From: Ignicoccus pacificus DSM 13166
Lineage (GTDB): Archaea > Thermoproteota > Thermoprotei_A > Sulfolobales > Ignicoccaceae
Direction: 5' to 3'
Assembly (NCBI GenBank): GCA_025340205.1
Contig: CP006868.1
Coordinates: 180,001 to 212,000 of the forward strand
Length of the DNA: 32,000 nucleotides
The position numbers and the translations under genes are program-made. This document shows, one piece after another, positions 9,815 to 30,893 of this stretch. Below the pieces are notes generated by a model. It worked only from the letters and a program-made list of their open reading frames with translations, was not told where the DNA came from and made no database searches. Numbering within the stretch: the stretch's first letter is position 1; each line of letters opens with the position of its first letter.

Positions 9815-10702
9815 TTAACCTATTTTCGGGAGCTTCGCCTCTTCCCTCACCTTGAACGCGGTAACGGTCCCATCCCTAGAACCTACTATTAGCAAGCCCC
9901 TCTCCCAGTTCAATGCTGTAGGTCTGGTTACAGTCACGTTGAGCGTTACTCTCTTTCCTTCGAAGACAAGGACCTTACCGGAGGTGACGGCTACAGCTAA
10001 TCTTTCGCACCCATCCTCAAAGGAGACGAGCGCTATGCCGCTGATGTTTCTATTCAGTAGGAGTTGAGGTTTCTTCAGCTCTATCACCTTGACAAAGCCA
10101 TCTCCTCCAACGGCTAGCTTACCACCGCAGTAATCGATGGAGTAAACGGGTCCTTTAAAGTCCACTTTACCCAAGACCTCACCGTCAGCTCTAAGCAAGT
10201 AGACCCTTCCGGGAGCGTCAGCGACCAAAACCTTGCCTCCATCATCCTCGAAGTATATCAAAGAATTAGGAAGCACTTGAGTAAGGCCTCTTAGGCCCCA
10301 GACGAGCCTTAGTTCACCGTTGAGGACGTCCAGATAGAACAGTCCGATGTACTTGTCAGCTGCTATCAAGTAGGGAAGCACCAGCTTCAAGGATCCGGCG
10401 AAGTTTGAATTAATTGGAAAGTCCATTACCTTCTTCCCAGAGAGGGTAAGGAAGACTACCTTATCCTGAGTCAAGAGGGCAAAGGTCTTTCCATAAATGT
10501 CAGCATCTCTGACTTCTTCCTTTAAGAATGTCTTATAGAGGACGTTTCCTTTATAGTCAAGTACAACTATAGAACCCTTAAGACCCACCACCAATATCTT
10601 GTCCTTCGTGAAGAGGATATCAAGGGGAACGTCGTTCATTTGGACGTGCCAGCTTGCGGCAAAGGCAATAGGAATCAAGAGCAGTATCAGAGAGTTCCTC
10701 AA
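9815..10702 (-). CDS. secreted beta-propeller-like repeat protein (stand-alone member of the propeller family expanded in the downstream island)
   Basis: Signal peptide 'MRNSLILLLIPIAFAAS'. Repeated short beta-strand/turn units. It shares 'YCGGKLAVGGDG', 'SFEDGCERLAVAV' and 'LNWERGLLIVGSRDGTVTAFKV' with the matching motifs of the 721-, 572- and 1395-aa proteins. Confidence 0.7.
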   Translation of the reverse strand: MRNSLILLLIPIAFAASWHVQMNDVPLDILFTKDKILVVGLKGSIVVLDYKGNVLYKTFLKEEVRDADIYGKTFALLTQDKVVFLTLSGKKVMDFPINSNFAGSLKLVLPYLIAADKYIGLFYLDVLNGELRLVWGLRGLTQVLPNSLIYFEDDGGKVLVADAPGRVYLLRADGEVLGKVDFKGPVYSIDYCGGKLAVGGDGFVKVIELKKPQLLLNRNISGIALVSFEDGCERLAVAVTSGKVLVFEGKRVTLNVTVTRPTALNWERGLLIVGSRDGTVTAFKVREEAKLPKIG

Positions 10703-14510: not shown

Positions 14511-16676
14511 CTACTTACTCCTTCTTCTAGCCCCAAGCAGCATTGCCGATAATAGAGCCAAGAGCGCCGGTATGGGTATCTTGGAGCTGCTGCTGAGAAG
14601 GGTACTGCTGTTCAGCGGGGCGGCTAAGGTGTACGTGGCTTTCATCGCCCCAAAGGCGTCTCCCAAAACGATAGTCCCTCCAAAGCTAATGGGCACGTTA
14701 AACGAGGTGACTGGTAACAGTATTAACGATTGTGTGAAGGTTGAGATCAGACTAGTTAGAGTACTCGATAAGGTCGTTATACCTTCATAGAGAGTTACTA
14801 TATAGCTAGTAACTGCCGACACGTAAGTGCTGCTCGAGTACGTGGTGGTGAACACAGTAACTCCACCGGCCCCGGTGGTAGTAGTGCCTATTGGTTCGAT
14901 TATCGTCTGTGTGGTGAAGGATAGGGTCGGTATAGTTATCGTTCCGTTAATGCTAGTGGTAAACACGGTCGGTGAAAGAAGTACTGCCTTGCCGATCACA
15001 TTAGTGCAGTATATCTTGGGTGCTACATTTAGCATACTTGTAGGCGTTATCGAAACTATAGCAACCGTCTGTGGGTAAACGTTGAGCATGTCTATGTAGC
15101 CGAGATCGATGTGCTGGTTACCGTCAATTCCAGTTAGCGTGCCCTCTATTCCGTACGGCACACATGTAGCGGTGTAGTACAGCGCCGTGGTGCTACCTCC
15201 TTGTAGCTTGTACAAGGTCCACGAGGCGATGCTGGAGGAGGGGGCGAAGTACAGTATTGGGGTCGAAGCGCTGTATACCGTAGGATAGAGTGTGATTGTG
15301 GTTCTATCAGTTACAGTAGTCGTAACCGTTTTTGTCAAGTATATGGTCTTTGTAGCCCATGAAGTAACAACTACCGTTTTGGTGACCGTTACGGTTTCTG
15401 GGGGAGGTGGAATGTACGTTATCCCTATATCCGTGGTTGGTACATATACTGTCGAGTTTACATACACTGTAGTCGGTGAGGGTACGTAAACGGTCGTTGG
15501 CACATACACGGTTCTATTTATGTATACTGTGGTCGGTGAAGGCACGTAAACCGTTACCGGAGGAAGCGTTACGTATACCGTAGTAGTTACAGTCTTGTAG
15601 ATCGTAGTCGGTATGTATTTGTACACGGTCACATAGACAGTGGTAGTAACGGTCGTCGTGATGTATCTATATAATATGCTGGTCAAGGTGGTAGTAGTGG
15701 TCACAACGGGTATCTGAGGCGTGTAGTAGTCAACCCTGTAGATGTAGACGTTGCCATCTTGATTCGCTACTGCTATCAAATCATACCACCAAGCGACGCT
15801 GGAGGAGCTATCTGAACCCACGGAAGTGTAAGCCTCTAGATTACCGTTTACACTATCTCTAATTTTAAGGATAGTGGAACTGAGTCCTTCGAGTATTGCT
15901 ACATATTGGCAATCCGGACTGAAGGCGATGTCAGTTACTCCAAATTCACTTTGGTACCAAATTAACCTAGGCTGCGTAGGGTCTGAGAGACTATACATGT
16001 ATAGGGTATTGTCGGTAGCTACGGCCAAGTAACCTCCGCAAGCGGCTACTATGTTGGGATTGTTTACCGAGATTGAGCCAAGTTGGATTCCGCTATATCC
16101 ATCAATTATATTAACTCTATCGTTGTCATAATCAGCAACGTAGACATATAGATCCGAACCGCTGTGGTATACTGCTACGCCGTGAGGAGGGACCTCTTGC
16201 GAAACCGACCAGCCATACTGAGTATAGATATCCACCCCTCTGATGCCAGCTCCGCCGCTGAGTAAGACCGTATCGTCATCTAGCATAAGGGCATCCCACC
16301 ATCCGGTGTACCCAGTAACGCTGGAAGCTGTGAATGAACTTACCAAGTAACCGTCGGTGTTGAAAATGTAGACAGAACCATCCCAAGTCACGAATGCGAA
16401 GTAACCGTAACCAAAGCTCCCACCCATTATCATTCCCGACACATATGCTGAGTTGATCTGCGAGAACGACTGATCGTAGAAGTAGACGTTGTAATCTCCC
16501 CCTACTGCTAGTATACCATTATATGAGAACGCAGCGCTCTGAGGAGTGAAGGGTACGCTTATGGATCTGACGTACGATAAGCTTATAGCGTTAGCCAACA
16601 CAGTGACTGCTAAGAGAAACAGCGTATATCGCAAGCGCCTCCCCGTTTCCCCCACCGAATATTTGCTTCTCGCCAA
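14511..16676 (-). CDS. secreted surface protein: propeller module, T/V/Y-rich beta region, two-Cys domain, Thr-rich stalk, IPIP-TM-RRRSK C-terminal anchor
   Basis: N-terminal hydrophobic signal ('YTLFLLAVTVLANA'). Propeller motifs 'AACGGYLAVATDN', 'AFSPDCQYVAIL' and 'VAWWYDLIAVANQDGNVYIYRV'. Two-Cys domain 'TATCVPYG...LNVAPKIYCTNV'. The C-terminus is 'KIPIPALLALLSAMLLGARRRSK'. It lies 34 nt downstream of the archaeosortase-like gene on the same strand. The exact start (TTG at 16676 or internal) is uncertain. Confidence 0.8.
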   Translation of the reverse strand: MARSKYSVGETGRRLRYTLFLLAVTVLANAISLSYVRSISVPFTPQSAAFSYNGILAVGGDYNVYFYDQSFSQINSAYVSGMIMGGSFGYGYFAFVTWDGSVYIFNTDGYLVSSFTASSVTGYTGWWDALMLDDDTVLLSGGAGIRGVDIYTQYGWSVSQEVPPHGVAVYHSGSDLYVYVADYDNDRVNIIDGYSGIQLGSISVNNPNIVAACGGYLAVATDNTLYMYSLSDPTQPRLIWYQSEFGVTDIAFSPDCQYVAILEGLSSTILKIRDSVNGNLEAYTSVGSDSSSSVAWWYDLIAVANQDGNVYIYRVDYYTPQIPVVTTTTTLTSILYRYITTTVTTTVYVTVYKYIPTTIYKTVTTTVYVTLPPVTVYVPSPTTVYINRTVYVPTTVYVPSPTTVYVNSTVYVPTTDIGITYIPPPPETVTVTKTVVVTSWATKTIYLTKTVTTTVTDRTTITLYPTVYSASTPILYFAPSSSIASWTLYKLQGGSTTALYYTATCVPYGIEGTLTGIDGNQHIDLGYIDMLNVYPQTVAIVSITPTSMLNVAPKIYCTNVIGKAVLLSPTVFTTSINGTITIPTLSFTTQTIIEPIGTTTTGAGGVTVFTTTYSSSTYVSAVTSYIVTLYEGITTLSSTLTSLISTFTQSLILLPVTSFNVPISFGGTIVLGDAFGAMKATYTLAAPLNSSTLLSSSSKIPIPALLALLSAMLLGARRRSK
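15433..15551 (-). repeat. imperfect about 60-nt tandem duplication inside the CDS, encoding 2x 'VYVPSPTTVY(I/V)N(R/S)TVYVPTT'
   Basis: Two adjacent units (15433-15491 and 15492-15551) are alignable by eye and encode a 20-aa unit twice. They sit within a longer T/V/Y low-complexity segment. Confidence 0.7.
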
Positions 16677-16710: not shown

Positions 16711-17586
16711 TCAAGTTACCCGCTCTCCTCGTTGTAACTTCCCAACTCTTTCAACCAGTAAAGGCTCTATTGGCTTCAATATACACCACTCCATCAAATC
16801 TATCTTAAGAACCTTCCCAAAGATCACGATGAATAGTGTTCCGTTTATTATCCATGTTAGCAACGACGTTAACATATGTGCAGAATACCACGGTCTTCCA
16901 AGTACGTAAAAGTTGCTAAATCCTCTTGTAGCGATGTAATTCTCTACTTGGAATCCAAACAGCATTATCAGTAGGATGACTCTAGCTATGTTCGCTGAAA
17001 TGAGTAAGATCAAGAATAGCATACTACTCCCAAGAAAGCGCACAACGAATTTCTTCCCTCTCTTGCTGTAAAGGCTTCTCACAAAGAGAGCTATGATCAG
17101 CGGCGTGAAGAATACTAAATACCTTAACGAACTGCAAGTGTAATGGAACCATACGTTCTCAGTATATATTACAACGATGTTCTGATGAGCACTAAGTGTT
17201 GTTATATGGAGATCGTGAGAGTCGGTGTTCACGAGAATGTTAAAAGAATTATCAAGGTGAAGGTGATTGAAAATGAAGGAAAGTAGTTTCATTTCAAAGG
17301 ATACGAACATGCTCGAGAGAGACGTGAACGCGGATGCCGCATTGAATATAATTAAGCTCAGGAGGGTAATTGAGAAGGACAAAGTGTAGATACATGATCC
17401 ATCTCTATCAATTAGAGCCAAGATTAGGAGTAGGGGGAGAGAAAGCAAGGACATGAACCCTATAGTGCGCGGGATTTCATGAAAGATGTATCCCATAGCA
17501 GTAACTCCTAGAAGAGATAATTGCAATAATAGTAGCAATGCAGCGAGTAATCTGAAGAACAGTTTCAGACGTATCCTCCACTTCAC
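16711..17586 (-). CDS. polytopic membrane protein with exosortase/archaeosortase-like catalytic motifs (candidate archaeosortase)
   Basis: 291 aa with about 7 hydrophobic helices. 'ENVWFHYTCSSLRYLVFF' (Cys151) resembles the family 'CSG(I/L)RS(L)' active-site context at the start of a helix. 'LLISANIARVILL' (Asn199/Arg202) resembles the 'N..R' motif 51 residues later. 'GRPWYSAHMLTS' supplies Arg231/His237. GTG start. The assignment is by remembered motif pattern, not a search. Confidence 0.5.
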   Translation of the reverse strand: MKWRIRLKLFFRLLAALLLLLQLSLLGVTAMGYIFHEIPRTIGFMSLLSLPLLLILALIDRDGSCIYTLSFSITLLSLIIFNAASAFTSLSSMFVSFEMKLLSFIFNHLHLDNSFNILVNTDSHDLHITTLSAHQNIVVIYTENVWFHYTCSSLRYLVFFTPLIIALFVRSLYSKRGKKFVVRFLGSSMLFLILLISANIARVILLIMLFGFQVENYIATRGFSNFYVLGRPWYSAHMLTSLLTWIINGTLFIVIFGKVLKIDLMEWCILKPIEPLLVERVGKLQRGERVT

Positions 17587-17669: not shown

Positions 17670-20600
17670 TTGTTGTTTCTCATCGTAGTGTTGGTATTGA
17701 ACGTCCGCGCCGCGTTAATAGTGATTCCGTTGCCTGACGGTAGAGCGATAACGAATATAATTCCCTATTCTCATTACATAAAAGTGAGAGTCATTGATAT
17801 GAATCATAACTATGCTAACCTTTTAACATTACTTCCTAAGGACTACCCTAACTGCCTAGGTTTGAAGGATGCCTTACCGTTAACCTTTATGTACGGCTGG
17901 GGCAAGTATTACTTAGTACACTATAATACTACAAGTGCCAATATTGACGTTGTCCTCTGTAAACCTTCCGAGTTAGGTGATATCAAGCCAATTATCCGCG
18001 CCATTCAAAAGGGAGACTCAAAAGGAATATCCTTACCAATATCGATCGCTAACGGAAGAGGCATATATGTCTTTATCTCACTCGAACATTTATTCCAGAC
18101 CTTACTCTATGAGCGAGTGTCAGCGACCGTCATTATGGACAATGGTGTCCTATTCGGTTCAATATCTAACGACTCGCCCATCTATACGATGCTCCGCTAT
18201 AGGGACTCCTTACTGATGCTCTTTGAACCGGCGGGTTTCAACGAACTTGATCTTGTTGAACATAATCTTACCTCTAATTCTCTAAGAATTATTTATAGGT
18301 TCCATCAGCCCATATTTGACATTAAAGCTTGTGATTCAACACTAGCAGTACTTACTAAAGCTCCAGAGGGGCTGGAGATAAAGATAGGTAAGGTAGATCG
18401 AGATAAATTCAACATAGAAAAAATAAAGAGGTTGGACGTTGATGCCGACCACGCATCTCAGAGCTTTACTCGTGATTGTAAGTACCTAGCAATATTATAC
18501 AAGGAAAAGAGCAACGCCCACGTCGCGTTACTAAATACGAGCGACCTCTCGGTTATAGGTTCAAAGGAAGTTCGAGTTAGTGGAATACCCATTGCTCTTG
18601 CCCTTCAGGGCAGTGAGTTATCGGCTATTACCCTAATTAAGAGCGATGATGTCTTTTTCCAAGACAGTTCGACTAATCCAATCGATGTTGCGTATATATC
18701 TTTAAGCGATCTTCTGCCCAAGAAGTATTTGTTAGAACTGTTAAAACTAAGAAGGAATGTTCATGAGCTTGGATCTTATGAGTATTATATGATTTTACCT
18801 CCGAAAAGAGGCCAAAGTTTACTAAAGAGAATCGAGGATGTAAAAGATGTTTGGAATAACATCACGTTAGTGATAAAAACAATGTTCGCTCTATTAAAAT
18901 ATAAGTCCTCCAGCGAATTAGTGGAAAGTGCTACTGAGTTGATCAATAGGGCAATAAATGAGACCGAACCTCTACTCGACGTGCTCAACACATCAAGTTC
19001 GATACGATTAGAAAAAGTTAATGCGGAGATAATTAGAAATCTCAACAAGGGTTGCAATATCACCTTCTCTAAGAACTTCCTTCACAATACTCCTCACTTT
19101 ATCTTGAGTACAGCAGAACTTTGTAGTAAAAGCACTGCGGAAAGCGTAGCGGAGCTCTTGTACGAGGGGTTCTTGCGATGCCTCACTCTCTCCAACGTTA
19201 CAAGGCTCAACGTTACCGGTGCGCTGCAGTGCGTCGATGTACGGAAGCAGTTGGAAGCGTTAGCATCTAACGTTTCTCAACTACTCTTCTTCTTGAAGAA
19301 CTTGGTTGTACTTCACTTCATAAATTCCGAAAAAGAATTCGCTTCCAAGCGTTACTTGAGTGATTCAACGCTTGGGCTATTGTTAAGTGACGTTAGGAAG
19401 TTAGACAAGCTGCTAAGGATACTCGCCAGTATGAATATAACCGTTAAACAAGGGAAGATGTTTAACTTGGAGACATTACTCCCGCCTATTAAGGTTAGGA
19501 AGGAATGCTCGCCACCATCAAGTCTACTTGAATTAGATCACTTAATCAATCTATTTAAAGCGAATAATCTGGATACAACGTTGAGACCTGATAGTATAGT
19601 TGAAGGAGCGCTCAAAGGATGGCTTGCACACTCCTACGTCATTTGTAAAGATAAGAATGAAACCGTTATTGAATACTTCCCTCTTCGGAGGAACTCGATT
19701 CCGGTAGTGGAGCTAGGGAACAATACTCTGCTTATTGGGGATGGAAAGGACTTAAGAATTATTTCGTTAATCAACGGAACAATGAAAAGCTATTTATTAA
19801 ACTCAAGCATATGGAAGGCTATACACTTAGGCCGTGATTATATCGTAGCTACTTCGGAAGGCATCTACTTAGTCAGCTTAAGTGGACTGAAGAAGCTAAT
19901 CACCATTCATAAGTCCGGTTATTACTACGCTCGCTATTTAGATGAAGAACTCATTGCTCCAAACCAAGTGTCCATATGTTACTATTTCTATACCCACTAC
20001 GGCACGAACGTTACATGCTTCCTCCTAGATTCAAGAGGGAACGTAATAAGGAGTTATACAAGAGCCTTTAGAAAGATACTAAGTAACGTGTTGTTGTTAG
20101 ACAATTACACGATTGTTAGCTATTCAACTAGTAGTACAGTTTATTACAACGCCGTAGAAATCGCTCAAGTTCCAGGAACGATAAAGTCGGCATTGTGTAG
20201 CCGGCTCTTGGTTGCAACCGATAATGAAAATGGGACAACGATATTCTATTTCCTAGGATATAAGAAAGTTCGACCGCTATGGATTTTGAACGTCTACGAT
20301 GACCTTGTGTGGCGCGGCGATATATGTAACTACGTTTTCCTTAAAAAGAGTAAAAGACTGCTGGACATATTTGGTAATTACTATACTTTAAATATGCTCC
20401 CAAGAGGCGACATGAAGATATATCGCAATGGCTCAAAACTCGTGATGCTGGAAATTTTCCCAGATTCTGATGGAAGATCATTGATTGGAAAGGTAGTAAT
20501 AAAAATCACAGAAGTGGACTTGAAGGAACCAGTCTTGGGACAGGAGAGGATTAAGAAGGTCAGGATATTGAATGGCGATACGTACCTCTCGTACTTAAGT

Positions 20601-21857
20601 TGCTTAATCAATCTTATGAATCCGAATATGTGTTATGACATCGTGAAGTCCGAGAAGGACGCTCTTGTGGTAAAGCTTAAACATGGAGTCTACTGGAAGA
20701 ATAGCATCTATGCTAATATTACTTTAGCGTTCATCAATAAGGCGAATGATACCTTGCATATCGAGATACAGAAGGCGTTACGACTCGAATTACCTCCGGG
20801 TAGTTCAAGGGTTCTCCGTATAAAACACGTACCTATCTACCTTACTCACTATAAAATTTTACCTATATTAATAGAATATCAATCCTCTCCGTACTTGAGA
20901 TTATACAACACCGTATTGGTTAATAACTCTCGTGATTCCCTAAAAGAGGTTTTAGTAAAGAATGTAGAGGGATTTGTAGAAGCTCTTAGCACATCCCCTA
21001 AGTACCTTGCTGTTGCCTTCAACAATATCACTTTCGAACCCAACAATTCAATACTCCATAACGGTCATATCTACATTTTAGATATTAATGGAAGCTTAGT
21101 GGAGCAGTACAATGTAAAAGGCGAGATGGAAGACGCCTCCTACTGCTGTAACAAGTTCGGCTTTGTAAATTTGGATGATTACGCCTACATCTACGACCTC
21201 TCAACTGGAACTTGGAAGAAGGTGTACGTTGGAGACGATTACGATAGAGCAATTACCATGCTTAAGAACGGCTTTCTGGCTGGTTGTTGTAATCTCGCCT
21301 ACTTCGATTTTCAAGGGCACAAAAGGTGGGACGTGAGTATGAATTACATTGTAAACGGTCCAGCTGTTTACAAAGGATACGTTTACGTTCCACAATATGC
21401 TGGCACTATGAACGCGCTCAGAATCCTCAAACTCTCGGATGGAGGTGAGGTAAGGACCATAGAGTTCAATGAACGGGTTCTGGACGCTCAAGTTTGTGGA
21501 AATTACTTAGCTCTTGGAACTGCTCACCATGTTTACCTTTATGACATTAGCGATCCAACGAATCCAAGAGAGCTTTGGAATTACAATGGGATTGCAAGGA
21601 GCTGTAATGGAGGATATTGTTATGGAGCTTGGAACGTCGCTTTCAGTCCGGACTGCAAGTACTTGGTTAGTGCTGATTATGAAGATCAAAAAATCCATCT
21701 GTTTGATGTACAAACTGGTAAGCAAGTGCTGGAGAGGAGGTTTGAAAGTAGTGTTGGCGAAGTCGCTTGGTGGAGGAACAGGATAGCTGTTGGATTGGAA
21801 AATGGTAAGGTTTACGTGTTCAAGCTGATAATACCTCCAATAACTTCCAAGAAGTAG
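17670..21857 (+). CDS. giant (1395 aa) secreted or N-terminally anchored, sequon-rich protein with a C-terminal propeller module shared with neighbouring surface proteins
   Basis: One uninterrupted 4.2-kb frame. Hydrophobic N-terminus 'LFLIVVLVLNVRAALIVIP'. I counted at least 20 N-x-S/T sequons by eye. A helical Leu-rich middle section spans about aa 350-650. The last about 250 aa align by eye to the N-terminal propeller of the 572-aa protein ('SYCCNKFGF/SYCCGKFSF', 'LKLSDGG/VKLSDGG', 'VCGNYLAL/ICGNYLAV', 'NPRELW'). There is no C-terminal TM anchor. The TTG start directly follows an in-frame TAG, so the true start may be slightly downstream. Confidence 0.8.
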   Translation: MLFLIVVLVLNVRAALIVIPLPDGRAITNIIPYSHYIKVRVIDMNHNYANLLTLLPKDYPNCLGLKDALPLTFMYGWGKYYLVHYNTTSANIDVVLCKPSELGDIKPIIRAIQKGDSKGISLPISIANGRGIYVFISLEHLFQTLLYERVSATVIMDNGVLFGSISNDSPIYTMLRYRDSLLMLFEPAGFNELDLVEHNLTSNSLRIIYRFHQPIFDIKACDSTLAVLTKAPEGLEIKIGKVDRDKFNIEKIKRLDVDADHASQSFTRDCKYLAILYKEKSNAHVALLNTSDLSVIGSKEVRVSGIPIALALQGSELSAITLIKSDDVFFQDSSTNPIDVAYISLSDLLPKKYLLELLKLRRNVHELGSYEYYMILPPKRGQSLLKRIEDVKDVWNNITLVIKTMFALLKYKSSSELVESATELINRAINETEPLLDVLNTSSSIRLEKVNAEIIRNLNKGCNITFSKNFLHNTPHFILSTAELCSKSTAESVAELLYEGFLRCLTLSNVTRLNVTGALQCVDVRKQLEALASNVSQLLFFLKNLVVLHFINSEKEFASKRYLSDSTLGLLLSDVRKLDKLLRILASMNITVKQGKMFNLETLLPPIKVRKECSPPSSLLELDHLINLFKANNLDTTLRPDSIVEGALKGWLAHSYVICKDKNETVIEYFPLRRNSIPVVELGNNTLLIGDGKDLRIISLINGTMKSYLLNSSIWKAIHLGRDYIVATSEGIYLVSLSGLKKLITIHKSGYYYARYLDEELIAPNQVSICYYFYTHYGTNVTCFLLDSRGNVIRSYTRAFRKILSNVLLLDNYTIVSYSTSSTVYYNAVEIAQVPGTIKSALCSRLLVATDNENGTTIFYFLGYKKVRPLWILNVYDDLVWRGDICNYVFLKKSKRLLDIFGNYYTLNMLPRGDMKIYRNGSKLVMLEIFPDSDGRSLIGKVVIKITEVDLKEPVLGQERIKKVRILNGDTYLSYLSCLINLMNPNMCYDIVKSEKDALVVKLKHGVYWKNSIYANITLAFINKANDTLHIEIQKALRLELPPGSSRVLRIKHVPIYLTHYKILPILIEYQSSPYLRLYNTVLVNNSRDSLKEVLVKNVEGFVEALSTSPKYLAVAFNNITFEPNNSILHNGHIYILDINGSLVEQYNVKGEMEDASYCCNKFGFVNLDDYAYIYDLSTGTWKKVYVGDDYDRAITMLKNGFLAGCCNLAYFDFQGHKRWDVSMNYIVNGPAVYKGYVYVPQYAGTMNALRILKLSDGGEVRTIEFNERVLDAQVCGNYLALGTAHHVYLYDISDPTNPRELWNYNGIARSCNGGYCYGAWNVAFSPDCKYLVSADYEDQKIHLFDVQTGKQVLERRFESSVGEVAWWRNRIAVGLENGKVYVFKLIIPPITSKK

Positions 21858-22150: not shown

Positions 22151-22717
22151 TTAATGAGGAGTAAAGCCAAGGCTAAGGACATAATGAACCACTATAGGTA
22201 TTATAAGGAACGGTAACGCAAAGGACAAAACCCTCCAATCGAACACCATGAAAAGGAAACCCACGAAGCTAATCATGGAGAAAACTACTAATATAAAAAT
22301 CCATATTGGTATGTTGTATAGCAGTAGAGGTACGCTGGCGTAAATTGTTGCTTTACCTAGCCAAGCTAGTTCAGTAAAATAGGCACCACTAAAGGGAAGG
22401 AGGATTGAGAAGAACAGCTGCCCTAGTATGTTATTCTTATCCTCTAGAAGACTGGTAGAGAGTGACAGCGAATAACTGAAGGCTAAGAGGGTTAGGAGAA
22501 ATATCAAGTATTGTGTCAGACCTAATACACTTACCGGCCAATCGAGACCGCTTAATCTAAAGATCGCAGCCGAGATAAGGAATGTCAAGAGAACAATACT
22601 CGTTTGTCCGTTGAGATTGGAATTAGTACGTACAGCATTGTGCGTAGAACCTGTGGAGGAGAGAGCCAAGATCGGTAATATTATCGTTAGTAGAACTAGG
22701 GTAGCACGCTTCTTCAT
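22151..22717 (-). CDS. Cys-free polytopic membrane protein, paralogue A (188 aa)
   Basis: Signal-like N-terminus 'MKKRATLVLLTIILPILALSS' followed by 4-5 hydrophobic helices. It shares 'FRLSGLDWP(V/I).V.G(L/M)..YLIFL..LL.FS(Y/F)S' with the protein at 23544..24131. It is divergent from the 204-aa anchored protein. Confidence 0.7.
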   Translation of the reverse strand: MKKRATLVLLTIILPILALSSTGSTHNAVRTNSNLNGQTSIVLLTFLISAAIFRLSGLDWPVSVLGLTQYLIFLLTLLAFSYSLSLSTSLLEDKNNILGQLFFSILLPFSGAYFTELAWLGKATIYASVPLLLYNIPIWIFILVVFSMISFVGFLFMVFDWRVLSFALPFLIIPIVVHYVLSLGFTPH

Positions 22718-22932: not shown

Positions 22933-23547
22933 ATGAAGAAGTACCTTCTCTTCCTAGCTCTCTTTCCGATAGCGCTTGCTGCGAATACAGCGGAGTTTGT
23001 CATACCTCCTTTTCCTCAGGGTGTGCTCACAGTTTTTGTTTCAATGAACATAGGCCCGGAAGTGATAACCTATAAAAATACCTTCCAACATCCTTTAACC
23101 ACAAATTTAATTGTAATTGATTTAGGTAAGACACCAGTCGTCCCAGTAGGTCTCTCGGTAAGAGGCTACATCCACGTACAAGCGAGTATGAGTAGCGGCT
23201 ATTGCTTTGAACCTTATGAGACCTACACCATCAAGTTGTACAGTATAGGTGAAAACGCAACAAAGCCTGTTACTTCTGTTAAGGGTACTCTTACCAGCAT
23301 ATGCGACTACTATTACACTTACGGTTTTTATGCAAACCCTCCATCGAGGTACAATTACTTCGGCTACCTGCCATTAACAACGTTCACCGCCACTACTGGT
23401 CTTACGTTTCGCAACTATATAACCATGACATTAGACTTAAAGGTCAGTATGACGTCCTTGCCTACGACTTCAATAGTGGTCCCTCTCCTGATAGGGCTAT
23501 CGCTGCTACTTATGAGATTCAAGACACAAGGAAGAAAAATTGCTTAG
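22933..23547 (+). CDS. small secreted protein with a compact two-Cys domain and a C-terminal TM/basic anchor (204 aa)
   Basis: Signal peptide 'MKKYLLFLALFPIALAANT'. 'GYCFEPYE...TSICDYYY' resembles the two-Cys domain of its neighbours. The C-terminus is 'SIVVPLLIGLSLLLMRFKTQGRKIA'. 'ctgtttttaac' lies about 25 nt upstream of the ATG and suggests a leaderless-type promoter. Confidence 0.7.
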   Translation: MKKYLLFLALFPIALAANTAEFVIPPFPQGVLTVFVSMNIGPEVITYKNTFQHPLTTNLIVIDLGKTPVVPVGLSVRGYIHVQASMSSGYCFEPYETYTIKLYSIGENATKPVTSVKGTLTSICDYYYTYGFYANPPSRYNYFGYLPLTTFTATTGLTFRNYITMTLDLKVSMTSLPTTSIVVPLLIGLSLLLMRFKTQGRKIA

Positions 23548-24131
23548 GTCACTAGCTGGTATAGAATACTAACCGTAATTGTGGGAATCAGTAAAAAGAT
23601 CAAGACGAAGCCTAGGAGCCTCGGTTGGAAAATCAATGCCAGTAAGATGAGCGGTATAAATCCGGCCAAGGCTGGTCCTATTATAATTACTCCAATTAGG
23701 TTGAGAGAAAAAGCTGTACCAAATACCGTGGATTGAGCAAGCATATAAATAGAGTAGAAGTAAGGACTCATTAACAAGAGGAATGATGGTAGCGCTGTAT
23801 GAGAGGTCGAGGTCATAAATAGTGATGATGTATCTCCCTTTGCAAGAGATCCTAAGGCAACTGAAAAGGAAAAAGAGAATAAAAGGAGGAAAAAGAGAAA
23901 TATTAAGTAATTTCCCATCCCCGTGACCATAATTGGCCAGTCCAAGCCACTTAACCTAAACGCCATTGCTGAGACAATGAAACCAAGGAGACTTACAAGC
24001 AACGTTTTCTTTCCAAAGGTTGAAAGAAGGAACTCCAAAATATGCATGTTAACGTCATCCGAAAAACCTTGTGCTATTACCGGTGTAACTATGATAATAA
24101 GCAGCAAAATCGCTACTAAGACCTTATTCAT
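23544..24131 (-). CDS. Cys-free polytopic membrane protein, paralogue B (195 aa)
   Basis: N-terminal signal 'MNKVLVAILLLIIIVTPVIAQG'. It carries the 'FRLSGLDWPIMVTGMGNYLIFLFFLLLFSFSFS' motif shared with 22151..22717. It is divergent from the 572-aa protein and overlaps the convergent upstream gene by 4 nt. Confidence 0.7.
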   Translation of the reverse strand: MNKVLVAILLLIIIVTPVIAQGFSDDVNMHILEFLLSTFGKKTLLVSLLGFIVSAMAFRLSGLDWPIMVTGMGNYLIFLFFLLLFSFSFSVALGSLAKGDTSSLFMTSTSHTALPSFLLLMSPYFYSIYMLAQSTVFGTAFSLNLIGVIIIGPALAGFIPLILLALIFQPRLLGFVLIFLLIPTITVSILYQLVT

Positions 24132-24254: not shown

Positions 24255-25973
24255 ATGGGGAAGGTGATATTAACACTCTTGGTTACTCTTGGAACGTTAC
24301 TAGCGATGCGATTAGCGTTGCTAGGAACTTTCAGCATAAATTCTATCAACGCAATAGCATTATCTGACGATGGTCGTTATATAGGCGTTGCTGCTGATGA
24401 TGGTGCTTACGTACTCAACCTAGACGGTGATATAGTTGCGAAATACTATAGTTATAACACAATAAGCGATGTTTCCTATTGTTGCGGAAAGTTTAGTTTC
24501 GTTGCATATGATTACGTTTACGTATATGACCTCGTAAGCAAAAAATGGGAGAAGATAAAGATAGATCCAGACTATGGTAAGTACATAGTAGCAACCAACA
24601 ATGGATTCGTAGTTGGAAAAGATGGAGTAGCGTTCTATAAATGGGATGGTACTCAAATGTGGAGTACCAACTACGACCTACTTTCCAAGCCTGTCATCTA
24701 CGATAACTATATCTTAATACCAGAAGACTACAGTTACTATGATTATTATCTAAGAGTTGTTAAATTAAGTGATGGGGGAACCATTGCTTCCCCCCTTGAC
24801 TTCGGGTATAGTTTTAAAATGGCTATCTGTGGGAACTATTTAGCGGTACTAGAATACTATAAGTTAATACTTTACAATATAACGGATGTTAAAAATCCAA
24901 GAGAGCTCTGGTATGACACTGGATTCTCCGATGCTTCTAGTGTTGCGTTTACCGATCATTGTGAATACGTCCTTGTGAGCGATGGGGACGATGTGTATTT
25001 CTACAATGTAACTAATGGAAAGAAGGTGTATAATATGACGATAAGCGGCCTCAAACGCGTAAGTTGGAAACAGTCAATAATGGTTGCAGATCTCGGCAAT
25101 GAGCTTTCGATATATTATCCCCTACCTGAGATAGAATTAACCGATAAAACGCAAACGCTTACGTGGACTGCCATACAATCTAACACCCTATACAGTTTTA
25201 CTGGCACATGCTTCGCCTACGGTATGGCGGCTACTATAATTGGTTTCGGTAATACAATAACGTTTAGTGGATACAAAACCATTATTGTGAGTAATGGGAA
25301 TAGTTACACTTACTCGAGCATAACTACCATAACTCAAGGCGGTAGCGTGACAACAACCATTGACGTAGGAAAAGTAGTATTAGGGAAGACAATAACAAAG
25401 AATCTCACGGTAGTCCTTTCGTTCTCGCCAGCCACAGCACTAAACTTTGTACCGAAAATAGTCTGCACTAACGTAACCGCTACCTCGTATTCCGGTTCCT
25501 TATCCTCATTAAACACTGTAATCACAGAAACACTTACTATATCTTTCCCACATTACACCAGCTCTACCGTCACTTACTATGTGACGACGACTACGGAAAT
25601 AGGAGGTGTAATCTTACCCACTACCGTGACAGCATCATCAGTAACGTATTTCAGTACAATATCAACAACTACGACAACTATTCTGATCACGAAACCAACT
25701 ACCAGTTTCTCAATAATACAGACACTAGGTAATGGTATTATTTCAACAATACTACTTAGTGCCTATCCAGTCAATTTTATGATGATAAAGCCAATAATTA
25801 TACTGTTAACCAACAACGCGGCCAAGTATACTGCCACGCTGTTGTTCACTGGAACATATCTAGCACAAACCATTAATGACGTAACCCCAACCACAAGCGT
25901 CGTGAACACAGTCCCCGTCCCCCTCATCTTGTCACTTATCGGATTCCTCCTAAGAAAGAGAAGTAGGGGGTGA
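24255..25973 (+). CDS. secreted surface protein: N-terminal propeller module, two-Cys domain, Thr-rich stalk, VPVP-TM-RKRSRG anchor (572 aa)
   Basis: Hydrophobic N-terminus. The propeller is alignable to the giant protein's C-terminus, and the 18-mer 'aatccaagagagct(t/c)tgg' is shared at 21561-21578 and 24894-24911. Two-Cys domain 'GTCFAYG...LNFVPKIVCTNV'. The C-terminus is 'NTVPVPLILSLIGFLLRKRSRG'. Confidence 0.8.
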   Translation: MGKVILTLLVTLGTLLAMRLALLGTFSINSINAIALSDDGRYIGVAADDGAYVLNLDGDIVAKYYSYNTISDVSYCCGKFSFVAYDYVYVYDLVSKKWEKIKIDPDYGKYIVATNNGFVVGKDGVAFYKWDGTQMWSTNYDLLSKPVIYDNYILIPEDYSYYDYYLRVVKLSDGGTIASPLDFGYSFKMAICGNYLAVLEYYKLILYNITDVKNPRELWYDTGFSDASSVAFTDHCEYVLVSDGDDVYFYNVTNGKKVYNMTISGLKRVSWKQSIMVADLGNELSIYYPLPEIELTDKTQTLTWTAIQSNTLYSFTGTCFAYGMAATIIGFGNTITFSGYKTIIVSNGNSYTYSSITTITQGGSVTTTIDVGKVVLGKTITKNLTVVLSFSPATALNFVPKIVCTNVTATSYSGSLSSLNTVITETLTISFPHYTSSTVTYYVTTTTEIGGVILPTTVTASSVTYFSTISTTTTTILITKPTTSFSIIQTLGNGIISTILLSAYPVNFMMIKPIIILLTNNAAKYTATLLFTGTYLAQTINDVTPTTSVVNTVPVPLILSLIGFLLRKRSRG

Positions 25974-25979
25974 TGGAAG

Positions 25980-26783
25980 ATGAGGAGGGATGTAATTTTA
26001 CTTCTATTGTTACCAGTTACACACGCATACCTACTCTCAATATCGCCAATCACGGCCACAATTTCGTGGACCATATACACTGTGGGGGCGGAGGGTACAT
26101 TTGCCTATGCTTACAAAGCTACTTGCTATCCGTACGGTCTAAAAGCTGACGTAGGTACCTCAGTTTTGGATATCGGATCAATTGCCTTCTTCGGTGACCG
26201 CTATTCACCGATACTTCAATTAACGGCAAGTGCTGACGTGAAAACCTTAAACAATGTAATGGAAAAAGTATGGTGCGATGATGCGACATTAAAAATCTAC
26301 TATGTTACCACCACGGTAACTATACTCAACTATACAGGTGTACTGGAGGCTATAGTCACTTCGTACGTTACAGCCACCTACTTGTTACCCAAATTAACCA
26401 CTACCCAAATAGGCGCAGGGGCATACATTCCTACAGTTGTGTACGTAACAACAACAGTTACGAAACCTATAATAAAGACAATAACCACTACATTAACGCA
26501 GTCCAATATAACTACTACACTTACCGGAACTGCCTTATATTCCAATACTACCTTTTCATACCTACTGCCGGCGGTGAGTGCGACTAAAATAATATTGAAG
26601 CAGATTCCAACCACAATAATCCTTTTGGACAACGTGGCTTTGCTGGGGATAAAGGTATTGGTCAGTAACCCTCTAACTACCACTAGTGTAGCCCTCACAA
26701 CAACGAGTACAACTACTGTTCCGGTTCCATTGCTGCTTAGTTTAGCCTACGTAGCCTTCTTGAGAAAGAGAAAGAGAGGTTAA
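25980..26783 (+). CDS. secreted two-Cys-domain protein with Thr-rich stalk and VPVP-TM-RKRKRG anchor (267 aa)
   Basis: Signal 'MRRDVILLLLLPVTHA'. 'SPITATISWTIYTV...ATCYPYG...KVWCDDA'. The C-terminus is 'TTVPVPLLLSLAYVAFLRKRKRG'. A 'GGGGGTGAT' Shine-Dalgarno-like element precedes the ATG, which lies 6 nt after the upstream stop, consistent with an operon. Confidence 0.8.
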   Translation: MRRDVILLLLLPVTHAYLLSISPITATISWTIYTVGAEGTFAYAYKATCYPYGLKADVGTSVLDIGSIAFFGDRYSPILQLTASADVKTLNNVMEKVWCDDATLKIYYVTTTVTILNYTGVLEAIVTSYVTATYLLPKLTTTQIGAGAYIPTVVYVTTTVTKPIIKTITTTLTQSNITTTLTGTALYSNTTFSYLLPAVSATKIILKQIPTTIILLDNVALLGIKVLVSNPLTTTSVALTTTSTTTVPVPLLLSLAYVAFLRKRKRG

Positions 26784-26858
26784 ACTTATTATCACTCTAT
26801 TAGCTTATCATTTCTCAATTTTATTAGCGGGAAAACTCCTTATCTCTTGAGGAGAGGG

Positions 26859-27695
26859 ATGGGTTTGAAGGGGACGTTACTCTTGTTAATTGCTCTCGCG
26901 TTTGGTGCTTATGCCAACATCATAGTTAGTATAGACCCTGTCACAACAACTGCTACTTGGAACTACTACACTGTCACGGTGGCAAATAACACGACTAGTA
27001 CGTTGGAAGTAGTAAGGACAGCAACATGTACTGCTATAGGCGCGCAGATGACGTTAATTGGTGAGAAGACGGCAGTAGTTAACATGGGAACTGTAAGAGC
27101 CGATGGTACAAGTTTGGTGCCAGAACCCCAATATTCCACGACCGTAACCTTGTCCTCGCTTAGTATGATCCAGAACTTCGTGCCTTATATATGGTGTGAT
27201 GATGTGACGGTGACCACATATCTACTCAATACTACCACTTCAACCATATCGACTACTGGTCTCTATACGACCAAAGTTCTAAGCACTACAGTTGAGACTT
27301 ACCTATACCCCAGTGTGACCTTAATTCAAGAAGGCCCCGATCTATACGTACCCTCAACTACCTTGGTGACGACATTAGTGACGCGAGCCATAACCTCTAC
27401 AATTAGTACTTGGATAAGCGCTACGACGACTACCATACAAACTCTCTCTTTCGCTCTCGCTTCAACAGTATATAGTATGGCACTGCTGGCGGTAAAACCA
27501 ACAAGCGCTATGATAACATCGCTTCCCACGAGTGTCGTAAACAACGACAACCTGGCTACCATGAACGTACCCGTATACCTCTCAAATACGCTACTTTCAT
27601 CTTCAGGGAACGGCGGTATACCAACCGTAGCTCTATTAACGCTTATAGTACCCTTCTTGAGGAGACTAAGGTCCAATAGAGAAGGGACAGAGTAA
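26859..27695 (+). CDS. secreted two-Cys-domain protein with Ser/Thr-rich stalk and C-terminal TM/basic anchor (278 aa from the ATG; the track ORF starts at a TTG at 26847)
   Basis: Signal 'MGLKGTLLLLIALAFGAYA'. 'DPVTTTATWNYYTV...ATCTAIG...NFVPYIWCDDV'. The C-terminus is 'GGIPTVALLTLIVPFLRRLRSNREGTE'. Confidence 0.78.
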   Translation: MGLKGTLLLLIALAFGAYANIIVSIDPVTTTATWNYYTVTVANNTTSTLEVVRTATCTAIGAQMTLIGEKTAVVNMGTVRADGTSLVPEPQYSTTVTLSSLSMIQNFVPYIWCDDVTVTTYLLNTTTSTISTTGLYTTKVLSTTVETYLYPSVTLIQEGPDLYVPSTTLVTTLVTRAITSTISTWISATTTTIQTLSFALASTVYSMALLAVKPTSAMITSLPTSVVNNDNLATMNVPVYLSNTLLSSSGNGGIPTVALLTLIVPFLRRLRSNREGTE

Positions 27696-28862: not shown

Positions 28863-29790
28863 GAGAAGAAGTCCTTGGAAAGAGGGTATATCTTTACTTA
28901 AATTGTAAAGGTTCTCTTTATTAGAAGGTCATAGTCAGCGACGGCAGTGCGAAGTTGAGGAGGCTAGTCCTTCTCTCATTGTTTATCCTTCCCTTGCTCT
29001 TCTCCTAAGGCCTCAACTACCAAGGATTGTTAATGATCTTCACTTATGGGCTACCCAAAGGATCAACGAGCTCGATGACATCTTGATGCGGTTCCTTAAC
29101 GCTCTCCCCAGAACCTCTCTAATTGAGACCACTTTCCTTACTGTTTCATGAAAAGGCAACGATGGTAGACATAATAAGCTACGGTTTTAGAATAAGATTG
29201 TTAATCTTAGACTTAGAAGATCTAGGAAAGTCTATATGCGAGAGCATACAAGAGGGCTTCAGTCGAGCCAAGGTGGAGGTACCAAGGAGCGCTTCAAATG
29301 CTGTTCCAAGTGAGGGGGATTATCGACAAAGGCTGGAACGCTTTCATCAATGATCTGAGGAACGCTGCCATTTGCGGGCCGAGTCCGAGCTACCAAATAA
29401 TATCTAATTCAAACTTCATAATACATAGAGTCGGCGAGAACTACGTTAGCTACCAATATGGACCAAACACCTACCAGAAGGCCATTGTAAGCTTACTCGA
29501 GCTTTTATCTCAACTAATGCCGAATGCTCGAGATCTGCTTCACCTTGTAAAAGTCAAATAGTTTTGAATATTGTTCTTTCTATAAGCAATCTACTTCATA
29601 TTGGTGGTTAAGATGGCAAGCAATATAGTTAAGAAGCTAGAGTGTTATCGGAAAATTACTCATGTTGGCTACTTACTCGTTGATATTCTCGGTGCTATCG
29701 ATAATAGCCATAGACTTTCCTTCACTAGTAATAGCAATAGAGATTTACATGAGTCCTTACATCTTTAATCCCTTCGTTCCATGATTTAAG

Positions 29791-30060
29791 ATGTTCGCAC
29801 AAATCGCCCTCTGGGCGTTGTTATCGTTTGTTCTCGCTTACATACTTGGAATAGAGATTAAACAGACGTGTCAGTCAGCAAAGGATCTTGATGTCGTGTA
29901 CTGGTGTTTTGGAGCACGGCTTTACAAAGGATACAACGAAGCGCGAGACCTCGGGAAGTCATGCAAAGAAAGACGTAGAAGAGTAGTATTGATTCATTAT
30001 TTGGGGAAGCCACAAGGTGCTGATCTTGATACCTTAAACGTGCTTTGGCTAACGATTTAG
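29791..30060 (+). CDS. possible small membrane protein (89 aa)
   Basis: ATG start and one N-terminal hydrophobic helix ('IALWALLSFVLAYILGI'). Nothing else supports it. Confidence 0.25.
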   Translation: MFAQIALWALLSFVLAYILGIEIKQTCQSAKDLDVVYWCFGARLYKGYNEARDLGKSCKERRRRVVLIHYLGKPQGADLDTLNVLWLTI

Positions 30061-30247
30061 TGATAAAAATTATGCAATTACCCTTCTGACATTTTCTCCT
30101 TTCTTTATCACCATCATGATTTCTTTGTTGTTCATTGTTTGTTCATTGTTCTTACTTCAAATAACTTCTACAATGAACCATTTCTCTATCCACAACTATA
30201 TTTCATTTACGCTCTTTACGTTAGCTAGGAGATGTGAAGGATTTTTG

Positions 30248-30893
30248 CTTTCTATTCACTATTGTAACTCTCCGTGACTATTACTATCCCTCAGAGTTCG
30301 AGGACTTCGTAAAGACTTTCTATTCACTCTTGTAACTCTCCCTCCTAATATTTGACAAAAGCTTGACACTGATCAGCGTTCAACTTTCTATTCACTATTG
30401 TAACTTCTCAAGTGGGGCAAGTACTCGGGCCTTCCGTTGGATAGAATTGCCTTTCTATTCACTATTGTAACTTCTCATTTCCTGAAAAGTGCATGTGCGA
30501 CATCCTAATGTACGCTTTCTATTCACTATTGTAACTTCTCTCACACCCGACAGCTTCGAGAGGTGGCAGTTAGCCGATAGGACTTTCTATTCACTATTGT
30601 AACTTCTCGAGGTGGAAGGGATGAAGGAAGGGAAGAGAATTGAAAAGTATGTAATAACTTTCTATTCACTATTGTAACTTCTCATCAACGATCCTAGGTT
30701 CATTGATTGTAAGATCCTCTCCTATCTTTCTATTCACTATTGTAACTTCTCTTTATCCTCGGCGATCGCTATCCCGGCCGAGGGAAGATAATACATCTTT
30801 CTATTCACTATTGTAACTCTTCTAATAGCCGGATTTCTCATTGGAGGAATAGTCGGTGCTCTGCTAGCTTTCTATTCACTATTGTGACTCTTC
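30248..30893. CRISPR. CRISPR array, 10 repeats and 9 spacers, with no cas gene in the window
   Basis: The 26-nt repeat CTTTCTATTCACTATTGTAACTTCTC starts at 30248, 30316, 30384, 30451, 30515, 30583, 30658, 30726, 30797 and 30868. Repeats 3-8 are identical. Repeats 1-2 end in ...AACTCTCC, and repeat 2 also has CACTCTTG. Repeats 9-10 end in ...ACTCTTC, and repeat 10 also has GTGAC. The spacers are unique and measure 42, 42, 41, 38, 42, 49, 42, 45 and 45 nt. The reverse complement ends in ...AATAGAAAG, which resembles the crenarchaeal 8-nt crRNA tag AUUGAAAG and so favours minus-strand transcription. Confidence 0.92.

Follow-up and report, generated by a model that had tools for sequence, protein, structure and literature searches.

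Organization of the Gene Island

The 32-kb stretch of DNA analyzed here (the "window") belongs to the genome of the crenarchaeon Ignicoccus pacificus DSM 13166. Between ~14.5 and ~27.7 kb, it contains an island of nine genes, five of which encode secreted proteins ending with a short C-terminal tail made of a proline-containing motif, a hydrophobic stretch, and a cluster of basic residues. On balance, and with reservations, we favour the view that this island encodes a dedicated and very divergent sorting system of the exosortase/archaeosortase type, in which the tails would serve as signals and m291, a membrane protein encoded in their midst, would be the enzyme. The nine genes are listed below, with positions in nucleotides (nt) of the window, lengths in amino acids (aa), and transmembrane (TM) segments.

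14511-16676, minus strand: p721, a secreted protein combining a beta-propeller with a Thr-rich module and ending with KIPIPALLALLSAMLLGARRRSK (tail at nt 14514-14582)
16711-17586, minus strand: m291 (IPA_01160), a 291-aa polytopic membrane protein without tail, candidate divergent exosortase/archaeosortase-type enzyme
17670-21857, plus strand: p1395, a large secreted protein, divergently transcribed with respect to m291, with a C-terminal beta-propeller and without tail
22151-22717, minus strand: m188, a 188-aa membrane protein with 5-6 TM segments, of no recognized family and without tail
22933-23547, plus strand: p204, a secreted protein unrelated to the other four carriers, with the generic-looking tail SIVVPLLIGLSLLLMRFKTQGRKIA (tail at nt 23470-23544)
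23544-24131, minus strand: m195, a 195-aa membrane protein, paralogue of m188, without tail
24255-25973, plus strand: p572, a secreted protein combining a beta-propeller with a Thr-rich module and ending with NTVPVPLILSLIGFLLRKRSRG (tail at nt 25905-25970)
25980-26783, plus strand: p267 (IPA_01195), made of the C-terminal module alone behind a signal peptide and ending with TTVPVPLLLSLAYVAFLRKRKRG (tail at nt 26712-26780)
26847-27695, plus strand: p282, paralogue of p267, with the degenerate tail GGIPTVALLTLIVPFLRRLRSNREGTE (tail at nt 27612-27692)

The 291-aa and 267-aa open reading frames (ORFs) are 100% identical to IPA_01160 and IPA_01195, respectively. The m291 gene, which the initial annotation did not mention, lies directly upstream of p721 on the same strand, its stop codon being 34 nt upstream of the p721 start. 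The other four tail carriers are found within 11 kb of the m291-p721 pair, a closeness of enzyme and targets that presupposes m291 to be the enzyme. Three of them, p572, p267, and p282, form a row with gaps of 6 and 63 nt. The two small membrane proteins are each encoded next to tail carriers: m188 forms a divergent pair with p204, as does m195 with the p572-p267-p282 row.

Architecture of the C-Terminal Tails

The five C-termini quoted in the initial annotation prove exact, in sequence as well as in position. Each follows a Thr/Ser-rich stretch, as had been noticed, with 27-40% of Thr plus Ser in the preceding 30 residues. In all five tails, 14-17 uncharged residues, the motif and its prolines included, precede 4-5 Lys/Arg, and the whole signal measures 20-25 residues from the start of the motif to the last residue. 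A hydrophobic stretch of 14-17 residues is short for a permanent membrane anchor. By inspection, the N-termini of the five carriers are signal-peptide-like, with a basic n-region and a hydrophobic h-region. The criteria applied here to sorting signals are the attributes listed by Haft (bioRxiv 10.1101/2023.06.07.544157); as regards position, all five tails lie at the extreme C-terminus and combine a TM-like segment with a basic cluster, for which the list asks 2-5 residues.

A six-frame scan of the window for a hydrophobic run with at least two Lys/Arg at the C-terminus returns these five genes together with three short ORFs, which appear to be spurious. The five occurrences in the 32-kb window are all located inside 13 kb. 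The large p1395 protein had been described as lacking the tail, and its C-terminus indeed reads ...KLIIPPITSKK.

The motif is less uniform than first thought. A common [VI]P[VI]P signature had been ascribed to the five proteins; it is found in three of them, as VPVP in p572 and p267 and as IPIP in p721, and is degenerate in p282 (IPTV) and p204 (IVVP). Its strength was assessed with leave-one-out hidden Markov models (HMMs) built on the C-terminal 35-mers and scored against 598 decoy ORF C-termini. The left-out tails of p572, p267, and p721 obtain 25.8, 26.6, and 13.5 bits, respectively, and no decoy scores as high; p282 obtains 8.0 bits, a value reached by one decoy, and p204 obtains 1.2 bits, a value reached by 37. 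Because of these scores and decoy counts, the signature is graded as robust at the sequence level in p572, p267, and p721, marginal in p282, and not significant in p204.

Paralogy and Selection on the Tails

The p572, p267, p282, and p721 proteins are paralogues over a Thr-rich C-terminal module of ~250 aa that contains an invariant Trp and two invariant Cys. Within this group, p282 and p267 share 31.6% identity (E=5e-22). The body of p204, on the other hand, has no similarity to any of the four. Since four of the five carriers are paralogous, their tails are not independent observations: judged from these comparisons, the pattern of five proteins sharing a tail is largely one of paralogy, the tails having been inherited together.

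On the plus strand (24255-27695), the large p572 gene precedes two short ones, p267 and p282, whose products resemble no part of p572 other than its C-terminal module. Each of the short genes has a start codon and encodes a signal peptide of its own. Nucleotide repeats between the genes are minimal, and no sign of recombination is found.

The bodies of p572 and p267 can barely be aligned (E=0.008), and both tails read TVPVPLxLSL...LRKRxRG. At the codon level, nearly all synonymous sites of these two tails differ, and the Ser codons belong to different families (TCA and AGT). Gene conversion was considered as the source of the tail identity and was rejected on account of these differing synonymous sites. 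Tails alike in protein and diverged at synonymous sites argue instead for selection, and the codon comparison indicates that purifying selection acts on the tails of p572 and p267. When the four paralogues are aligned, identity over 20-column windows peaks in the tail, with a value of 0.42 against a mean of 0.22; ranked by BLOSUM score, the tail comes third, level with the two Cys-containing core motifs.

Comparison of the Tails with CTERM Models

The proline motif had been said not to equal the PGF, PEF, or PEP motifs of known sorting signals, and this is borne out: none of the NCBIfam CTERM models reaches its cutoff on any of the tails. Three of the five tails have no match at all to these models. 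The p267 tail is matched by PEF-CTERM with 14.0 bits, for a cutoff of 23. The p721 tail is matched by MYXO-CTERM with 16.0 bits (cutoff 20), by PGF-CTERM with 9.4 bits (cutoff 24.5), and by CGP-CTERM with 10.1 bits (cutoff 21).

The PEP-CTERM model TIGR02595, whose cutoff is 16 bits, matches no wild-type tail at E<=10. Changing IPIP to IPEP in silico in p721 yields a TIGR02595 match over the whole model with 15.6 bits, together with matches to eight PEP-CTERM protein families. As this change nearly reaches the cutoff, the p721 tail is one residue away from a PEP-CTERM signal and lacks its defining Glu. The tails of p572 and p267 do not match TIGR02595 even when a Glu is introduced in silico.

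The m291 Protein

The m291 protein displays six to eight hydrophobic segments by hydropathy. Used as a full-length query, it matches the model of exosortase O (XrtO, TIGR04489) with E=5.9e-5. A query restricted to its core (residues 100-245) gives 27.9 bits with XrtO (E=9.7e-7) and 18.5 bits with XrtN (E=9e-4). XrtO, XrtN, and the generic signature TIGR04178 are the top three of 18,950 models for this core, and the three alignments are colinear. Because the core was picked after a first match had been obtained, significance is more fairly expressed by taking the E-value of the full-length protein times nine, the number of proteins scanned, which gives ~5e-4. The XrtO and XrtN matches are statistically significant yet far below the subfamily cutoffs. 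Among the controls, one reversed and four shuffled copies of m291 match no model. The ArtA-E models do not match m291. The parts of m291 that correspond to the models are as follows.

16945-17214, minus strand: core of m291 aligned to the exosortase models, residues 125-214
17134-17136, minus strand: Cys151 of m291 (in YTCSSLRY), on a high-information model column
16981-16983 (Arg codon), minus strand: Asn199-x-x-Arg202 of m291 (in SANIARVILL), on high-information model columns

The weight of these residues in the matches was probed by substitution in silico. C151A lowers the XrtO score by 5.5 bits and the XrtN score by 3.0 bits, and the TIGR04178 match is lost. N199A and R202A lower the XrtO score by 4.2 and 4.6 bits, respectively, and each abolishes the XrtN and TIGR04178 matches, as does the double substitution C151A+R202A, with a decrease of 10.0 bits for XrtO. 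The control substitutions Y149A (-0.1 bits with XrtO) and I193A (-1.0 bits) leave the other models unchanged; F160A, a third control, adds 0.7 bits with XrtO and removes 5.0 bits with TIGR04178. The losses place Cys151, Asn199, and Arg202 on high-information columns, where one would expect to find the catalytic Cys and Arg, both critical in the archaeosortase ArtA. The alignment register is the same in seven other sub-segments of m291, and the alignments end at residue 214 or extend beyond it without gain in score. According to hydropathy and the positive-inside rule, the basic loop 170-183 would be cytoplasmic, whereas Cys151 and Arg202 would both lie on the outer side of the membrane. The AlphaFold2 model of m291, which is of low confidence, is mostly helical with a short strand region (119-147).

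Homologues of m291 were sought in several ways. One homology search returned only the protein itself, a sequence search of the PDB gave no match, and a tblastn search of plasmids with the core gave a single, irrelevant match.

The m188 and m195 Proteins

The m188 and m195 proteins are paralogues with 34% identity, 5-6 TM segments, an invariant FRLSGLDWP motif, and no Cys. Neither has a match in Pfam or NCBIfam, and the exosortase models match neither of them. The idea that they might be truncated relatives of m291 was rejected, the comparison showing them to be unrelated to it.

Beta-Propeller Proteins and Database Searches

The N-terminal beta-propeller of p572 and p721 is homologous to the C-terminal propeller of p1395 (E=3e-39 with p572 and 2e-18 with p721). 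Three propeller homologues, p1395, P0004, and the 291-aa ORF of L002, end without a tail, in agreement with criterion 8 of Haft. Searching a protein database with a propeller profile retrieved five metagenomic proteins, none of which (0/5) carries a tail; this search missed p572, p721, and p1395, which are apparently absent from that database. Scanning genome contigs with the propeller profile yielded three loci from Desulfurococcales metagenome-assembled genomes, devoid of tails and of sortase-like genes, I. pacificus itself not being among the returns. A profile of the four-paralogue module retrieved only p267 among 8000 candidates, the candidate list having probably been saturated by Thr-rich words. 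Two metagenome scans, one with this module profile and the other with the p721 N-terminus aligned to P0005, found nothing. In the related I. hospitalis, the genome harbors an expanded WD40/beta-propeller family (PMC2614490).

The composition of p1395 differs from that of the tail-bearing proteins. Its Thr content is 4.7% vs 13-20% in the latter, and it contains 26 N-x-S/T sequons, of which the tail-bearing proteins have few. These figures suggest different glycosylation regimes within one island. Another beta-propeller-like ORF, of 295 aa, is located outside the island (9815-10702, minus strand); it gives weak WD40/PQQ matches and does not end with a C-terminal tail.

Genomic Context of the Island

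The left 14 kb of the window are occupied by housekeeping genes, which code for ribosomal proteins, pyruvate:ferredoxin oxidoreductase, deoxyhypusine synthase, and a class II aminoacyl-tRNA synthetase. The latter possesses the Pfam core and anticodon-binding domains, and it resembles a threonyl-tRNA synthetase. The G+C content drops from ~0.50 to ~0.40 near 17 kb and stays low through the end of the window, a region that includes an AIM24 gene, an array resembling clustered regularly interspaced short palindromic repeats (CRISPR), and a V4R gene. Since the low G+C persists to the window end, the island is not compositionally distinct from its right flank, and a foreign origin, which had been considered on the basis of the ~40% G+C, is unsupported.

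The CRISPR-like array (30248-30889, plus strand) comprises 10 copies of CTTTCTATTCACTATTGTAACT, with 0-1 mismatch and spaced 64-75 nt start to start; no copies are expected by chance. The window yielded no identified cas genes. The ~1.3 kb that separate the AIM24-family gene from this array (28900-30240) are free of ORFs above 90 aa and give no match in Rfam.

A Putative Sorting System and Its Alternatives

Four observations support a divergent exosortase/archaeosortase-type system: the architecture of the tails, the selection on the p572 and p267 tails, the reproducible sub-threshold match of m291 to three exosortase-family models, and the adjacency of m291 to its putative substrates. The sorting-signal reading of the initial annotation is upheld in part. 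Its tripartite layout is real, and an exosortase-like neighbor is present; set against these are the paralogy of four carriers, the weakness of two tails, and a sortase match that remains below threshold.

In such a system, the substrates would be secreted Thr-rich proteins, probably O-glycosylated, whose signal would consist of [VI]P[VI]P (degenerate in two of them), the hydrophobic stretch of 14-17 residues, and the 4-5 Lys/Arg, and the enzyme would be m291 (IPA_01160). The membrane topology, the cleavage and its site, and any attachment that we infer can be arranged in four steps. The N-terminal signal peptide would first direct export through Sec. The short C-terminal helix would then hold the protein transiently in the inner membrane, with its basic cluster in the cytoplasm. 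The proline motif or its immediate vicinity would be attacked by Cys151 of m291 together with Arg202; these two residues are predicted to lie where two helices, with a strongly basic cytoplasmic loop between them, reach the extracytoplasmic side. Finally, the helix would be removed, and the protein would enter the intermembrane compartment in free form or be passed on to a lipid or another acceptor.

The main, though less probable, alternative is that the tails are ordinary C-terminal anchors. The carriers would then be type I membrane proteins with a glycosylated Thr/Ser stalk, sharing their tail by paralogy, and the prolines would cap the helix; m291 would be no relative of exosortases, or would not act on these proteins. 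A series of observations fits such anchors and weighs against a sorting system. The whole ~250-aa module is common to four of the five carriers, so that the many pairs of carriers alike only in their signal, another attribute in the list of Haft, are not seen here. Over the five tails, the only invariant columns are one Leu and one Arg. The leave-one-out scores of p282 and p204 are weak, and p204, the sole unrelated carrier, has a tail that is indistinguishable from chance by sequence alone. No curated CTERM model is passed, and a synthetic p267 tail with an ablated motif (VPVP to VAVA) passes the LPXTG_anchor model with 16.7 bits for a cutoff of 15.9; short CTERM models thus answer to any helix-plus-basic tail, generic tails resemble sorting signals, and weak matches weigh little. 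A Ser/Thr-rich stretch followed by a C-terminal TM segment is, moreover, the usual anchor of crenarchaeal surface proteins, and crenarchaea, according to a 2012 review, appear to lack archaeosortases and their substrates (PMC3387779).

Several results on m291 and its putative substrates likewise weigh against a sorting system. All matches of m291 fall far short of their curated cutoffs: the XrtO match attains 27.9 bits for a subfamily cutoff of 250, and TIGR04178, whose cutoff is 23, gives 16.3 bits (E=0.009) with the core and 16.3-17.5 bits over the queries. The Pfam family Exosortase_EpsH does not match m291 at E<=10. No third catalytic residue could be placed, the substitutions H237A, R231A, and R221A leaving the scores unchanged. 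A phmmer search over 1.84 billion representative proteins retrieved m291 itself and one spurious repetitive match (P0002). The AlphaFold2 models of m291 and p267, with predicted local distance difference test (pLDDT) values of 54 and 35, respectively, are too poor to be used in a fold search.

Plain anchors account less easily for the tails of p572 and p267, which keep their residue identity whereas synonymous sites and the rest of the module are near-random, for a hydrophobic stretch of just 14-17 residues, and for the presence, directly upstream of p721, of an exosortase-like protein with a Cys and an Asn-x-x-Arg on conserved columns. Were the tails plain anchors, the finding would be an ordinary one.

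It is improbable that the tails are true sorting signals handled by another enzyme, such as m188/m195 or a protease of rhomboid or CPBP type from another part of the genome. The divergent pairing of m188 with p204 and of m195 with the p572 row would suit this role, as would the invariant FRLSGLDWP of these paralogues, which no known family explains, and enzymes outside the exosortase family, among them rhombosortase and the myxosortases, act on other CTERM signals (bioRxiv 10.1101/2023.06.07.544157). However, m188 and m195 contain neither a Cys nor a recognizable protease motif, match no protease family, and are unrelated to m291, and the island already holds an exosortase-like candidate. Still less probable is a fast-evolving polymorphic cassette of surface proteins with the tail as the constant anchoring end of exchangeable modules, a scheme compatible with anchoring as well as with sorting: p267 and p282 follow p572 and can be aligned only to its C-terminal module with the two Cys and the tail, no homologues of the module or of m291 emerge from very large databases, and the VARTIG loci have a like layout with two conserved Cys, a putative sorting signal, and no sortase found (PMC8416519), but each of the two short genes has a start codon and a signal peptide to itself, and this single genome offers minimal nucleotide repeats and no evidence of recombination.

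The favoured sorting system has to be considered in the context of its host. Ignicoccus is not known to have a surface layer (S-layer). Its cells possess two membranes (PMC3387779). The review literature assigns archaeosortases to a subset of Euryarchaeota only (PMC6098224), and a limited literature search found no later report contradicting this or their apparent absence from crenarchaea. With somewhat less confidence than for the sorting system as such, we tentatively propose that I. pacificus harbors an exosortase-type system that is possibly the first in crenarchaea, with an orphan enzyme, a new VP[VI]P-type signal, and a two-membrane host without S-layer. Such a system may help glycosylated beta-propeller proteins to travel from the inner membrane to the intermembrane compartment or the outer membrane. 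If this is true, the exosortase-like family would extend to the crenarchaeal phylum, and divergence within it could exceed what pairwise searches are able to detect. It would also provide a testable handle on how surface and intermembrane proteins, including those of the WD40/beta-propeller family, are positioned in a two-membrane archaeon devoid of S-layer.

Comparison with Known Systems

The ArtA/PGF-CTERM system of Haloferax volcanii resembles the island by its tripartite C-terminal signal, which follows a Thr/Ser-rich linker. ArtA is, like m291, a polytopic protein of ~300 aa. Its critical residues are Cys173 and Arg214 (PMC9263693), and Cys151 and Arg202 of m291 fall on the conserved TIGR04178 columns. 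ArtA removes the C-terminal helix of its substrates, and the same role is proposed for m291. The two systems differ in the signature, [VI]P[VI]P in the island and PGF in ArtA substrates, and in the spacing between Cys and Arg, 51 residues in m291 vs 41 in ArtA. Furthermore, Arg253, the third conserved residue of ArtA (His in the proposed triad), has no counterpart placed in m291, and the island belongs to a crenarchaeon without S-layer.

Among the bacterial exosortases (XrtA, XrtN/XrtO), XrtO and XrtN provide the best model matches of m291, ahead of the archaeosortase models, and PEP-CTERM is the nearest signal. The core consensus of PEP-CTERM signals is V-P-E-P. The V-P-x-P of the island resembles it, and the Glu is absent from the island tails. 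PEP-CTERM systems occur in diderm, i.e., two-membrane, bacteria, and Ignicoccus is likewise surrounded by two membranes. In contrast with the bacterial hosts of PEP-CTERM, the host of the island is an archaeon, and there is no exopolysaccharide (EPS) locus near the island.

The SlaB protein and the sugar- and oligopeptide-binding proteins of Sulfolobus likewise possess a signal peptide and carry a glycosylated stalk rich in Ser/Thr together with a C-terminal hydrophobic segment and basic residues (PMC3387779). These anchors are retained and have no cognate sortase, whereas the island has an adjacent exosortase-like gene. The hydrophobic stretch of the island tails is also short in comparison (14-17 aa), and residue identity is kept in three of the tails.

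The VARTIG loci of Thermococcales (PMC8416519) offer a parallel in gene layout, with a large secreted protein followed by smaller genes that match nothing but its C-terminal module. They share with the island two conserved cysteines and a putative, previously undescribed C-terminal sorting signal, and the island may be likened to them as lineage-specific, fast-evolving loci. In VARTIG proteins, which contain immunoglobulin (Ig) domains, a DNNxxxGG motif comes behind the hydrophobic region, and their loci have yielded no candidate sortase. The island proteins, in contrast, comprise beta-propellers and a Thr-rich module, carry their motif before the helix, and are encoded together with a sortase candidate.

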